Positions 2,735 to 63,100 of a DNA stretch of 64,000 bases are shown piece by piece. Source of the DNA: Mobula hypostoma (lineage: Eukaryota); NCBI RefSeq assembly GCF_963921235.1, contig NC_086107.1, positions 100,628,001 to 100,692,000 of the forward strand, given 5' to 3'. Each line of letters starts with the position of its first letter. The first letter of the stretch is position 1. The position numbers and the translations under genes are program-made. The notes beneath the pieces were generated by a model, which worked only from the letters and a program-made list of their open reading frames with translations, was not told the DNA's origin and searched no databases.

Positions 2735-2826
2735 ACACACAAAAAATGCTGGTGAACGCAGCAGGCCAGGCAGCATCCATAGGAAGAGATACAGTCGACG
2801 TTTCGGGCCGAGACCCTTCGTCAGGT
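2735..2826 (-). mobile_element. Penelope-derived short element with intact minimal hammerhead core
   Basis: Minus strand reads CTGACGA-A-GGGTCTCGGCCC-GAAACGTC-GACTG, followed by the family body (GATGCTGCCTGGCCTGCTG...TGTGTGT). Confidence 0.8.
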
Positions 2827-2939
2827 CTAGAGTATAACTGTGTATAACTTTATTAAATTTATGATTTATGATTCAATTTATGATTTTTTTTCCTCTTGAA
2901 AGCTTCATAAATTAGTATATTTCAATATAACTATTGACT

Positions 2940-57100: not shown

Positions 57101-60100
57101 AGGCCTGGAGTGACTCACTGCAGCAACGCCCAGGTCCTAATGAGAGGTATAATCCACTGTTTGGGCTATCTAAGTGTTGGCCTGTATAGATTGGGAAGGC
57201 AGGGTGTTGAGAGTTGGATGAAGTTGAATCACTGTGAGCACCGAGCCAACTTGGAGAGGTCGAGAATGGCTCCCTTGGCAGCAAAATCTAGGCCTGGGGT
57301 GATTCGCAGGCAGTGGGGATGGGTCTTAGTGCGAGGTTCGGACAATTTAAACACTGGCCCAGATAATCTGGGTACTTCTCTGTCTGTGACCTGAGGCTAT
57401 GAGACTGCCCCCTGTTGCTGTGCTTCTTGTCTGTGAGCTTTGTGGCAACTTGCCCCACTAATGTGATGAACTGAATACCGAGGCTTTGGGGCTACTCCAA
57501 GGATTTGGATCTAAGGACTCAATTTGATTTGGATTGCTGTTGTTGCTTGCTTCTTCTGTTGGTATGATTTGTTTTGTGTTGTTTTTCTCTTTCTCTGTGG
57601 GTATTGGGGGGTTGGAATACGTAACCATGCTCATTTGCTTCTACCACACCCCAACCCACGTGATTACTGTAATAAATGTCCCACTATATACAATACAGAC
57701 AGAAAATAGATACCTGCCTCCTACATCAGGAAATAATTAAATCAGTAATTAGTACTCTCCTTTGAGCCAGATGTTTGTGGGTTCAAGTCTCACTTTGGAG
57801 AAAATCCCAACTGAACATTCAGTGAAGTACCAAGGGAGCACAGCACTGTTACGGGTGCTTTGTTTCTGATGAGATATTAAATTGAGACCGTTTGGTCTAT
57901 CAGATGATGTAAGGTATTTCCAGGAAGATTTCAAAGAAGGGCAAGGATGCTATTGCTAATATCTTGGATAGTATTTATACTTCGATAAGCATTCCACCAG
58001 CCTTTCTTTTTGTGGACAGATAGGTGCAGTTTTTTCAATATTGTAACACATATCATATTTTTTTTTGCCTGAAGGATTTTGATGGGAACCTAAGGCCATA
58101 AAAGGTGATGTATAAATCCGGGTTTATGTCTCTCCAATAGAGGTTGGTTAGTGGGATTAAGATGCAAAGAGCCATCCGTTCATACAGCAGGAAATTTGTG
58201 TGTGAGATCTGTGTCAATGGATGATGGCTGAATTCCCTCCTTGATAGGTAGCTCAGGATCGGAGTTTACAATGTGGCTCATCAACTATATCTGTGCTTTA
58301 ACTGAGTGGTGAAACATGTTGGAGGGAACTGAAGACGAAAATCTTGAACAGAAACACGAGATTCTACAGATGCTGGACATCTTGAATAGCACACGCAAAA
58401 TACTGGAGGAACTTGGCAAATCAGGCAGTACCTCTGGAGGGGAATAAACATTGGACATTTAGGGCCGAGTCCCTTCAGGACTGAGATGTTGACTGTTTAG
58501 TCCCCTCCATAGATGCTGCCTGACTTGCAGAGTCCTCCAACATTTTGTGTGTATTATTGAACGGAGTTTTGTGCGTAACTTCGTGAATGATGAAACTGGG
58601 GATACGTACAACTTTAAAGAAAACGCAGCTCCAGAAAAGGACAGGCAATGTGTCTTTGAGGCAGCTGAAAAGTAAGTTTTGAATTTGTCTTCTCAAAATT
58701 CTTACAGTAGTAATTTTTTTTGCTGCTCCTAGTAGATAATTTTTGGTTCAGATGGGTTGTATACTCTGTGATGCACAACATATCAGAATTCTGTGAAACA
58801 GAGCGTCTTTGCTTAGTTTTCATTTTATAATCAGTCGTTTGATTGTCACATCTACTCATTCTTTCCTTGCATCAGGCAAGCAGAACTCATCGTCGTTGTC
58901 TGGTATGGTGACACCTCAGAAGAGGTCAGCCCTTTCAGTCACATTTGGAGGCAGCAGTCAGTCCTCTCCAGTTAAAATGCCAGATGCGGACCCAATTGAT
59001 GTTGCAGCGCACTTGCAGCTTCTGGGAGAATCACTGAGCCTCATCGGCCACCGACTGCAAGAAACTGAGGTGAGATGTGTGTGAAGTGATGGAAAAGATG
59101 AGAAACATCTACGTAACAACAAGGAGCATGGTAGGCACAGAATTAATTTGAAATTTCATCTTTGATTTTCCACACCATGGCCTTGTGTTCCTCATGCAAA
59201 TTTTGAAGACTTCAATATCACCAAGCATTGGTGTTTTGGAGTTGGAGCAGAAATGTGTTTTGCAGCAGCAACCCATGACTATTCCAAAAATGTGTTGATG
59301 TTATTTCCTTAATGATGTCTGATGGGAACAAGAACAGAACCTGAGGTCTTCCTGTTTTTACCTCACTGCTGGATCTATTTAAGACAAGAGGGAGAAAGGA
59401 ATAGAAGGGTGTGCTGGTTATTGTGGAGGAAGCCTTGTGGAGTTTAGCCCAAGTGGATCAAATGGCTTGTTTCCATGCTGTAAACGTTTGTGTAATTGTT
59501 AAGTTTTTAACAGCTACCGTCATCAAATTCTAATAACTGCATTGCAATAAGTTCTACCTTCAATGGATAGGAAGCCCTCAGAAAGCAAGTGCACATTCAG
59601 GGCTGAAAGATTTGAGTTGCTTTGAATTTATGGAGCACCTCATTATGGGCTTCAGTTCTTTCTTTAAAAATTAAATCTATTTTGGAGAACACAGGCCTTC
59701 CTTCTTTGGGATGAGTATTGAAATGCAGATAAGATTCATAAAATAACAGTCTACTTTGTTTGCTGGCGCTGATATAGAACATTGTTCCCAGTTTCAACAG
59801 GGGTGGAATTCAAAATATAAAAATACTATTATTCAGAATTGAATGTGTGTTACGGTTCTTGGCCTTGCTGTATGCCCACATCAATATGCATCATAATTTA
59901 TGTTCAAAAATGGAGCCACATCTGACTTAGCCCTCTTTCCAACAAGGTCACAAGATAGCTGTGACCGAGTTCAAGGATGTTACTGCTAATTTAGTTTCAC
60001 TGACGTCATGGCAAAGAGATTGTTCAGCAACAGTACAAATTAGAGATTACATCTAAGACTCCCTTTGTCCCACTGTTTTTGCAACTCATTTGTTATTAAT

Positions 60101-63100
60101 TAAACCATGAGGAATTGCATTTTACTTTAAAACCTAAAGATGTCTTAGGCTGTTGAGTACTTATTGAGTTTCTAAAATGGATAGTTTAAAACTATTTTTC
60201 TCTTTTTTAGGGTATGGTGGCAGTGTCTGGGAGTCTCTCTGTCTTGCTGGATTCCATAATCTGTGCACTGGGTCCATTAACTTGCCTCACAGCACAGGTT
60301 GATCATCTTAATGGCTGTCCAAAAGAAACTCTTGTGAGTTTTTCTTTCTCCTGCATTCTCCAAATGATATGCTAAAGGGTCCGAAAAGCATTTCCCACCC
60401 GACAAGCTTCCTAATTTGCATGCAGAAATTCAAGTCAGTTAAGATCAGTGCCTCTCTGTTCTCGGATAAACCTAGTGAGTGGGAGACTGCCAAGTACATT
60501 GAGACTGTGTGGCATTAACATCCAGTTTCATCTTTCCTGTTGCATGGCATTAGCGGTGAAGATCCTCAGTTCTGTGAGGAAACCAGTGAGCTGAGAACTG
60601 ATTAGTTCAGAACTGAAAAAGGAGATTTAAGAGGGATGCTGAACATTTTAATTGTTTTTATATTGTAAGTAGGAAAATTTTTCCTTTGATGGATTGATTA
60701 GTAAGCTGTATGTACATATTTTGTATTTCCAAACAATACAGGAAATAATTCAGCTGATGGAGTCCATGCCAACTCAGACCAATCCTGTTTCCACCACATA
60801 GTTCTGCATAACCACGTCTCCCTCACATGCCATCAACCACACTCTGACTCTCCAAGCACCCACCTTTATTTGGGGCAACACAGTAGACAATTAACTTCTG
60901 AACCGCTTTTTGTGAGATGTGGGGGGGAAACTAGAGCACCAGGGTACTTGCACGTAAACACATTTGGGCATGATGGGAATGTACAATCTCTGTGCACAGA
61001 TAGTCCCAGAGGTGACAATCAAACTTGGATTACTGGAGCTATGAGGCGTCAGCACTAACTGCTGTGCCATGATGATGCCTGGTGCCCAAGGTAATTTTCA
61101 CATCACCCAGAGGGACAAAAGAGAAACTTTAATTCTGGCATCCATTGTTTTGGGAAAATTTCAGTACTAATTTGTGATTTCCCCCTTGTCTTGTCAATGA
61201 GAAGTGGAGGATAAAGTTTTCCACTAGCTGTACTTGTACCTCAGACAATAGAAAATGGTTATGGTAATAGTGGGAAAATTTCAGTACTAATATTCAAAGG
61301 TGAATTAAATATTTAATTGCAGAGAAGAAAATTAGAGGCACTGTAAAGAATCTAGCTGAAGGAATTGGATAGCTTTTCCAAAAGTGGCACAGTAGACCAA
61401 ATGGTGATCTTCGGTGCAGCTTCGTCTGTGGGTCTGTGCAGCTGTTGCTTAAAGTGATGGGCGGCAAGCTGAGAGACTGATGTGGATAACTTGTGATTTC
61501 CCCCTTGTCTTGTCGATGAGAAGTGGAGGATAAAGTTTCCCACTGGCTAGACTTGTACCGCATATAATAAAAAATGGTTATGATGGTTGGACATTAATCA
61601 TTTCAGCCTCAGGGCATCACTGGAGAAGTTTCTTAGGCCCAACAGAGAGAAACTGGAGAGAAACAATATGACAGGTGAAAGTGGGAGGGGGAAGGATGAA
61701 GTAAGTAGCTTGGAAGTTGATTGTTGATTTTCATCAATCAACTTCTTGGCTATTTACTTCATCCTTTTTCCCTCTCGGTTTCACCCTCCCCCTCCCCCAG
61801 CTTTTAAATCTACTCCTCATCTTTTTTTCTCCAGTTCTGCTGAAGGATCTTGGCCTGAAACGTCGACTGTACTTTTTTCTGGCCTGCTGAGTTCCTCCAG
61901 CATTTTGTGTGTGTTGCTTGGATATCCAGCATATGTAGATTCTCTCTTCATGAAATACTCTTTGTTTTTACTTGTTAAATTTTATCTGCTATGTGTTTGT
62001 TCACTTTACTAGCCTGTCACTATCTTTGTGATGTCTATTACTTTGAACCGTACTGCCAAGCTTTGTTTTGTTCACAGATTTGGAAATTGGGCATGTGACA
62101 TTTAAGTCTAAGTCATTAATAAATATGAAGAAAAGCATTGCTCCTGGTACCAACCCTTGGCAATCATCACTGTGTACACTTCTCTCTAATCCAACCATTA
62201 CCAAATGCACTTTGTCCTTGTCACTAAGCCAATTCAGTGCCTATAGGACTTTCACTGGTACTTCTTCAAGTCCAGAATGACATTGACTATTCATGGAACT
62301 CCCTAATGGCATTGTCAGAATAATTCAATAGAAGATCAGTAATGATTCCAGAAGGTTTATCACCATCTTTTCAATTGCAAATAGGGGTAGGGAGTAGTGG
62401 TGGGCAGGGTTCAGCATCATCTTACCAGAAAAGACCATGATGGCTTTCCAGGCAATCGCAATTCCTCATCTATTTCCCTGCTGAGTCTTTTGCCATCCAC
62501 CTCTGAGTGCTCTAGTTTGCTCCCACAATCCCCACCTGGTGAGGTAGGGTTGGTAGCTCAGTTGGCTGTTGTAAATTGCCATTAGTGTGTAGGTGGATGG
62601 CAAGAGAATCGGTGGGAGGTTACTGAGCATGTAGAATGTGCAAAATCCACACGAGACAACAAGACCCAGATGTTAAAACCAAACCTGGATTGCTGGAACT
62701 GAGCCATACTACCTCCAGCCTCACTGTACTGTTCAGTGGTTCTTGGAGAGCTAGAAAGCAATAGGTCACACCCATCATAAATAGTGTGTGTGTGTGTGTG
62801 TGCGCGCGCGCGCGCGCCCTTAACTCCTGGTGGAGTTGTCGGGTCGCCGACAAGCTTTTTTGGTATGCTCATTGTACGGCGTGTCTTGGGCATCTGAAAT
62901 GAACTTGAGACCTCTTGCCCTGAAGTCCAGCGCTGATGCCACTACGCCACCAGCCGGCGTTAATAGGACTGAGATCAATTTGCTCATTGTCTTCCATAAC
63001 AACTACAGCTTTGTTTTGTCTTCCATAATAACTACAGCTTTCTAATTGTATTGTTTTTATTCACCCAGGCTCACACACTGGATAACATTGCTTATATCAT

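Follow-up and report, generated by a model that had tools for sequence, protein, structure and literature searches.

Hammerhead-bearing short repeats in a Mobula hypostoma genomic window as probable 3'-end fragments of an abundant Penelope-like element

Penelope-like elements (PLEs) of metazoans carry minimal hammerhead ribozymes in their terminal repeats, the so-called pseudo-long terminal repeats (pseudo-LTRs), where the activity of the motif is reported to be low even in dimers (Cervera and De la Pena 2014, PMC4209133). The same report already describes solo motifs that stem from truncated PLEs, as well as pairs of motifs on opposite strands separated by 100-700 bp. Here, we describe a family of short repeats bearing such a motif in a 64,000-nt stretch of the genome of Mobula hypostoma (contig NC_086107.1, positions 100,628,001 to 100,692,000; hereafter the window, numbered from its first nucleotide). 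Because the copies in the window align collinearly with the 3' end of an abundant autonomous PLE, share its sequence variants, and have variable 5' ends, we consider it very probable that they are dead-on-arrival 3'-end fragments of this element, for which we use the name family B.

PLE insertions in other organisms show strong 5' truncation, an adjacent inverted and truncated copy, and a tail of 30-40 bp at one end (Craig et al. 2021, PMC8557442). In Anolis, the tail has been attributed to reverse transcription starting at either of two internal sites, and both target strands are nicked and extended (Frangieh et al. 2024, PMC11167929). The Anolis motif was cut only with protein present, no accumulation of RNA ends marking in-vivo cleavage was seen, cutting was dispensable for insertion in vitro, and the RNA required for in-vitro insertion extends beyond the reverse-transcription start site. 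Among cartilaginous fishes, Penelope appears in the inventory of whale-shark repeats (PMC8455134), and PLE-derived retrozymes have been surveyed in one Chondrichthyes genome (Li, Clavereau and Pollet 2026 preprint). Our literature searches, which included the main texts of PMC4209133 and PMC7229834, yielded no main-text account of this motif family for sharks or rays; the main text of PMC4209133 mentions no cartilaginous fish. Each component has nevertheless been published before: the motif and its location in the terminal repeats of PLEs, the copies that are solo or inverted, and the tail.

The family in Mobula shares features with these systems. As in the minimal hammerheads of PMC4209133, the motif combines CUGANGA and GAAA boxes with a palindromic CG and a short helix I, of 4-5 bp in that report and 5 bp here, lacks helix III, resides in the terminal repeat of an element encoding reverse transcriptase (RT) and a GIY-YIG endonuclease, and is found mostly as solo copies and in opposite-strand pairs. 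With the PLEs of PMC8557442 and PMC11167929 it shares pronounced 5' truncation, partial tandems forming pseudo-LTRs, an inverted 5'-truncated neighbor, a one-sided tail (34 nt here), and target duplications. A type-I hammerhead within a short, non-coding, PLE-related repeat is also shared with the non-LTR retrozymes of animals (Cervera and De la Pena 2020, PMC7229834; Li, Clavereau and Pollet 2026 preprint). There are also differences: stem II has 4 pairs including a U-G, compared with 7-8 bp in Schistosoma; the commonest young variant carries G10.1-U11.1 in place of the G10.1-C11.1 pair that is conserved in PMC4209133; and the copy number lies far above the 4,000-9,000 motifs given there for coelacanth and Xenopus. 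The open reading frame (ORF) of Anolis Poseidon begins inside the hammerhead, whereas the family-B motif precedes the initial ATG of its frame by ~440 nt and, at the other end of the unit, follows the stop codon by 300 nt, with 98 nt left to the 3' end of the element.

The parent element is identified by sequence continuing upstream of the motif. Counted over both strands of the 3.48-Gb assembly, a 33-nt motif with up to 2 mismatches has 72,574 matches (36,260 + 36,314), and a 31-nt tail motif with up to 1 mismatch has at least 129,776 (65,049 + 64,727); the reversed controls gave 0 in both cases. At eight loci with exact motifs, homology continues upstream by variable lengths, up to >1.2 kb, and one of these stretches can be aligned for 1,247 bp with the GIY-YIG-encoding region of another genomic locus, L024. 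An 88-amino-acid endonuclease query produced 171,462 first-look candidates across the genome; all 150 of the 150 scored candidates are 95-100% identical to the query, and their open frames reach up to 949 codons. The complete family-B unit measures ~3.5 kb from motif to motif and runs in the order hammerhead (33 nt), 64 nt, an optional 34-nt tail, 5' untranslated region (UTR), RT and GIY-YIG frame, 300-nt 3' UTR, and the next hammerhead.

A link between the motif and Penelope ORFs had been named beforehand as a test of the Penelope assignment, and such a frame, with the motif 300 nt downstream, is present at three loci, L025, L026, and L027. In L025, the frame spans 1654-4500, the motif follows at 4801-4833, similarity between copies stops near 4931, and an inverted 1,660-bp copy abuts the 5' end. 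L026 (minus strand) contains the motif twice in direct orientation, at 1250-1282 and 4764-4796, representing both terminal repeats; its upstream motif and 98-nt end run directly into the 5' UTR, and a 12-bp duplication surrounds the whole insertion. Within the 949-codon frame, Pfam places RVT_1 at 453-603 and GIY-YIG at 852-926. The frame also aligns with that of a second PLE family in this genome (29% identity over 512 amino acids, E 1e-63), in a match that spans both the RT core and the GIY-YIG domain, and the GIY-YIG domain of the second family passes the Pfam cut-off. The nearest ESM Atlas clusters (score 0.98) carry RVT_1 and GIY-YIG. Units with an upstream terminal repeat can be recognized by the junction between tail and 5' UTR, of which there are 542 occurrences, or ~0.4% of the tail count.

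The extent of truncation was assessed on 30 loci chosen by the tail and not by the motif, which represent 25 insertions. Their 5' ends form a continuous distribution from +34 to -1201 relative to the motif start: 14 of the 25 start inside the motif or within 130 nt of its start, the other 11 reach 214-1201 nt upstream, and 8 include endonuclease-coding sequence. Where sequence upstream of the motif is present, it is the 3' UTR and coding region of the PLE, and no defined 5' head distinct from the autonomous partner was found in these 25 insertions. Short and long copies have motif variants in common (C at N7, U at 11.1). An inverted head-to-head partner accompanies 12 of the insertions and is absent from 13, and the 34-nt tail is confined to one arm wherever both arms are seen. 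Among the first 100 exact motif sites listed, all eight pairs less than 1.3 kb apart (8/8) are arranged minus-then-plus, that is, head-to-head, and same-strand pairs, which would represent direct tandems, are absent.

In the window, blastn queries and mapping combined assign ~14 sites to one dispersed repeat family. The sites named in the preliminary description were all recovered by blastn or with the reference module, that at 51030 being a degenerate copy read directly from the sequence. With window 2735-2835 as the query against the window itself, blastn returned 19 high-scoring segment pairs (HSPs), and a 172-nt reference module from the genomic copy L027 gave 17 HSPs at ~12 sites. Allowing up to 3 mismatches, a 13-nt core word is found 12 times in the window where 4.76 occurrences are expected, and 0 of 100 shuffles reach this number; the strict string CTGANGA..GAAACGTC has a single occurrence (2797-2824, minus strand) against 0.00 expected. 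When placed on L026, the window copies all lie within the last ~140 nt of the PLE except for 61731-61948.

Paired copies in the window are all inverted, and none of the window's tandem arrays includes the module. Three inverted-repeat pairs belong to the family: 8047-8137 with 8140-8230 (91-nt arms, 96% complementary), 8973-9043 with 9059-9129 (71-nt arms, 89% complementary), and 61692-61727 with 61731-61766. Four window units are organized head-to-head with their 3' ends outward, such that the terminal 34 nt is found on one arm and the other arm ends ~64 nt past the motif. Direct repeats of 13-15 nt with at most 1 mismatch, which we read as target-site duplications, flank the units at 2729, 8005, 8937, and 9849. 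In a random control of 300 pseudo-units the longest such repeat was 11 nt, and by this control the flanking repeats at the remaining six window units are not above chance.

The individual copies range from young to heavily decayed; their extents are given here relative to the motif start on the element. The solo copy at 2729-2829 (minus strand; -5 to +95, without the 34-nt tail) holds the sole fully intact core in the window, at 2792-2824, with 4 of 5 helix I pairs, and is flanked by a 14-nt direct repeat with 1 mismatch at 2699 and 2837. A second minus-strand copy, at 4743-5010 (-4 to +92), has its hammerhead interrupted by a 168-bp insertion at 4817-4984. This insertion belongs to another short repeat family, of which ~158-bp copies, 88-98% identical, are present in L027, L037, L043, and L010/L022.

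The head-to-head unit at 8005-8232 consists of a minus arm with the tail (8009-8145; -6 to +130) and a plus arm without it (8132-8230; -6 to +92). Both of its cores are mutated, at C3/U4 in one and at G8 in the other, and the unit is bounded by a 14-nt target-site duplication at 7993 and 8230. Its RNA is predicted to fold into a duplex of ~90 bp (-186.5 kcal/mol, z -24). The unit at 8937-9129 is also head-to-head and is truncated within the hammerhead, with a tail-bearing minus arm at 8940-9056 (+12 to +129), a plus arm at 9047-9129 (+13 to +96), and a 15-nt duplication at 8926 and 9130. In the older head-to-head unit at 9849-10054, the minus arm spans 9849-9990 (-14 to +131) and the plus arm starts at 9994, where the motif reads GAAATGTC and has lost the palindrome; a 13-nt duplication is present at 9839 and 10062. 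The fourth unit, at 58353-58561, is old and combines a minus arm at 58353-58482 (-4 to +125) with a plus arm at 58478-58561 (+15 to +99).

Two further solo copies, at 25611-25748 (plus strand; -2 to +129) and 42521-42628 (minus strand; -4 to +102), are old, with decayed cores and 68% identity each to the reference module. The copy at 52948-53090 (plus strand; -4 to +129, with tail) is young, at 95.6% identity; its core is intact, its CG palindrome has changed to CA, and its flanking 9-nt repeat is not above chance. At 61655-61948 lies a longer old copy whose plus arm (61731-61948) extends into the 3' UTR, starting ~115 nt before the motif, and directly adjoins an inverted piece of 3' UTR at 61655-61723. 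The region 51030-51260 contains degenerate pieces of the tail, present in both orientations, as judged from a blastn match at 51220-51259 together with direct reading of the sequence. Tail-only fragments without the hammerhead lie on the minus strand at 453-519 (+46 to +115, 73% identity) and 994-1060 (+62 to +129, 77% identity), and a weak 40-nt tail fragment lies at the window edge (63957-63996, plus strand, 75% identity, E 0.013). Between the two minus-strand fragments is a tRNA-Arg gene with anticodon CCT (750-822, plus strand, 67.4 bits). A 45-bp unit present in two copies at 53619-53709 (97% identity) is unrelated to the PLE-derived family.

The family consensus of the motif reads TAGTC / CTGAYGA / A / GGGT-CTCG-GCCY / GAAA / CG / TC, followed by GACTG after the cut site, and this sequence identifies it as a minimal type-I hammerhead without helix III, of the Penelope kind. 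The preliminary description had mapped the core, which runs from CUGAYGA through the bulged A, stem II, GAAA, and the palindromic CG to UC and GACUG, correctly, and its account of stem III as reduced to an ACGU palindrome also stands: in the family consensus ACGU directly follows GAA, with CG at 15.2/16.2 and no helix III. Its stem I of CAGUC/GACUG needs revision in part, since helix I does have 5 bp, but its 5' strand is TAGTC in young genomic copies and CAGTC-like only in old ones, for example, at 42581 and 58437. The motif had also been placed at the end of the copies; on the sense strand it occupies the start of the short ones. The bulged A between A9 and G10.1 forms a column that is at least 90% conserved and is present in nearly all copies. 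A descriptor for minimal hammerheads, one of the checks proposed for the motif, gave 47 matches in 275,723 bases and 0 in shuffled sequence. Another, a search of the window against Rfam, returned only the tRNA at gathering score, and none of the 23 matches at E<=10 was to any hammerhead family; hammerhead models that include helix III may explain this miss.

All core features are intact in 40 of 61 aligned family copies. In the window, an intact core together with H17 and the CG palindrome is found in 1 of 10 motif-spanning arms (2780-2834, minus strand), the eleventh motif-spanning copy being the one split by the 168-bp insertion. As the window motifs are mutated, often lack the 5' strand of helix I, or are locked in a hairpin of ~90 bp, they are predicted to be inert. 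Folding of the monomer is a point against active constraint: in the minimum-energy structure the core GACG pairs with CGUC at the cut site (-13.8 kcal/mol), compared with -9.6 kcal/mol for helices I and II alone.

By analogy with the Anolis element, the endonuclease of family B would nick both target strands, and each 3'-OH would prime reverse transcription at one of two internal start sites, the choice of which would yield a copy with or without the 34-nt tail. Polymerization would then stop early and the two cDNAs would be joined. The hammerhead belongs to the terminal repeat of the parent element, where two motifs on one more-than-unit transcript could pair via ACGU and cut after GUC, probably with the help of protein.

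Several results weigh against this account. Both Pfam assignments of the long frame score under the curated cut-offs (RVT_1, 20.6 versus 29.6; GIY-YIG, 18.5 versus 22.6), and a PDB sequence search with the family-B ORF found no relative. The pair 10.1-11.1 is GU in 29 and GC in 22 of 55 distinct rows of the alignment, and U11.1 is carried by 81 of the first 100 listed exact sites as well as by copies beside long frames. Stem II had been described as covarying across copies, a claim that did not hold in the 61 aligned copies (55 distinct): the covariation score is 0.124 versus 0.131 after shuffling, and 90.0% of cells are paired versus 90.3%. Double changes occur in 2 stem pairs only, a value matched by 79 of 500 shuffles, and the stem substitutions are nearly all one-sided, from G-C to G-U and from U-G to U-A. 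Excess conservation of the motif was likewise not found in nine old copies, in which its identity to a young copy is 72% versus 70% for the tail core; the 20 nt that follow the motif retain 57%, and the terminal 34 nt are best kept, at 83%.

A further set of such points concerns the 5' ends. The sample consists of young copies located in the first 1.3 Mb of a single contig. Among the 61 aligned copies, 18 lose family similarity within 7 nt upstream of CUGA, and of 83,225 exact half-motifs genome-wide, the 6 upstream bases are kept by 56,369 (67.7%) and the 6 downstream bases by 67,215 (80.8%). These numbers suggest that 5' ends are modestly enriched at the edge of the motif, which would suit a preferred short unit. 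The excess could also arise from stalling of the polymerase or from an RNA 5' end at this position.

Head-to-tail units of the kind seen in retrozymes are found here at only three loci elsewhere in the genome, whereas the window copies are solo or inverted. L058 (G000:C2:157816300-157817800) contains a 310-bp unit repeated 4.1 times and flanked by the duplication TTATCTAATTTTA; L059 (G000:C50:58412100-58413200) contains a 310-bp unit with the same junction, repeated ~1.5 times, with the duplication TCAGAAACT; and L060 (G000:C2:122542400-122543400) contains a 262-bp unit with a different junction, repeated ~2 times, with the duplication TAGCATTAAGAT. Each mini-unit keeps the hammerhead and tail together with the initial 100-173 nt of the 5' UTR but has lost the entire ORF, and each multimer lies within a single target-site duplication. 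The 310-bp junction occurs 6 times in all, at two loci, having been inserted twice with different duplications. The tandem mini-units are thus retrozyme-like but rare.

In the 310-bp unit, the deleted segment opens with ATATCCTTT and closes with ttccttcag immediately ahead of the helix-I TAGTC (borders in L026, minus strand, around 1560 and 4758; junction in L058, minus strand, 296-306), and we take these two ends to resemble minor-class splice sites. The junction of the 262-bp unit is different and not splice-like. The Penelope of Drosophila virilis reportedly has an intron whose 3' end abuts helix I. If the splice sites in family B are real, its ORF might be removed as an intron with its 3' end in the same position. 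It is doubtful that the parent element produces retrozymes, with the multimers arising when a small circular RNA, formed through cutting and ligation by the hammerhead, is reverse-transcribed in rolling-circle fashion; were this route true, the 5' ends in excess at the edge of the motif could mark a preferred short template.

The preliminary description proposed a high-copy, non-autonomous, ribozyme-bearing Penelope parasite. The Penelope affiliation and the high copy number stand, but a reading of the window copies as a distinct, tiny, retrozyme-like element is not supported, given that they are collinear with the 3' end of an autonomous element and carry its variants, have no common 5' end, form no direct tandem in the window, and show the inverted partners and one-sided tail known from PLE insertions. 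A version of this idea would be a ~135-nt unit of hammerhead and tail, resembling a short interspersed element or a retrozyme, that has its own transcripts and is mobilized in trans by the PLE enzyme. An apparent surplus of 5' ends located 0-6 nt before CUGA would fit such a unit, as would the young 137-bp copy at 52948-53090, the contigs of other organisms, which often lose similarity right before and right after the motif, and the 262- to 310-bp tandem mini-units with motif and target duplications at L058, L059, and L060; a derivation of animal retrozymes from PLE terminal repeats has also been proposed (Li, Clavereau and Pollet 2026 preprint). However, the distribution of 5' ends is continuous, with 8 of 25 insertions extending into coding sequence, the motif variants are identical in short and long copies, direct tandems are absent from the window and from the first 100 motif sites listed, and the six occurrences of the 310-bp junction are confined to two loci. 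Since the RNA requirement of the Anolis element in vitro extends beyond the RT start site, a solo 135-nt copy would, by analogy, lack RNA needed for insertion. Taken together, we regard a separate short element as very unlikely.

Still less credible, to the point of being nearly dismissible, is that the hairpin units are fold-back DNA transposons (miniature inverted-repeat transposable elements) or hairpin-RNA or microRNA genes whose likeness to a hammerhead arose by chance. The inverted arms are near-perfect, the fold of the 8005-8232 unit is very stable, and Rfam at E<=10 reports weak matches to the microRNA models mir-5681 (54.8 bits) and mir-641 (37 bits). These scores, however, are far under the gathering scores of 88 and 100, and the matches, at 8098-8179 and 9012-9090, reflect the long hairpins. 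Both arms correspond to the PLE 3' end, they are unequal, only one of them bearing the tail, and the junctions vary among units; moreover, 13 of the 25 sampled insertions have no inverted partner, so that most copies of this sample are not hairpins, and the motif is tied to an RT and GIY-YIG frame. On the grounds of the PLE-derived and unequal arms, the sub-gathering scores, and the link to this frame, the transposon, microRNA, and chance readings were rejected. The head-to-head units at 8098-8179 and 9012-9090 are possible sites of microRNA mis-annotation or, if transcribed, of double-stranded RNA. We therefore retain truncated family-B insertions as the explanation for the window copies.

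The second PLE family noted above is found at L021 (4762-6243, minus strand), L022 (4236-5312, plus strand), L023, and L024, partly in tandem arrays of ~2.8 kb. Family-B hammerhead modules lie directly upstream of 5'-truncated copies of this family, and a search for its own hammerhead with the strict descriptor gave only family-B motifs in L021-L024 and seven other GIY-YIG loci. Beyond Mobula, part of L025:4300-4960 is contained in 22 public runs from 8 organisms and 6 studies. In contigs of four organisms, the endonuclease-coding part and the motif with its tail are covered far deeper than the 3' UTR between them, which indicates that those parts are shared more widely, and nothing more.

These findings have little bearing on ribozyme or transposon biology in general. 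For annotation they carry a caution, as head-to-head units of this kind mimic microRNA precursors and fold-back transposons in automatic pipelines. For the elements themselves, family B represents a very high-copy PLE family, with >100,000 3' ends in a 3.5-Gb genome, that allows hammerhead variants, G10.1-U11.1 among them, to be set against the age of the copies, and the rare tandem mini-units provide concrete loci for the proposed origin of animal retrozymes from PLE terminal repeats.

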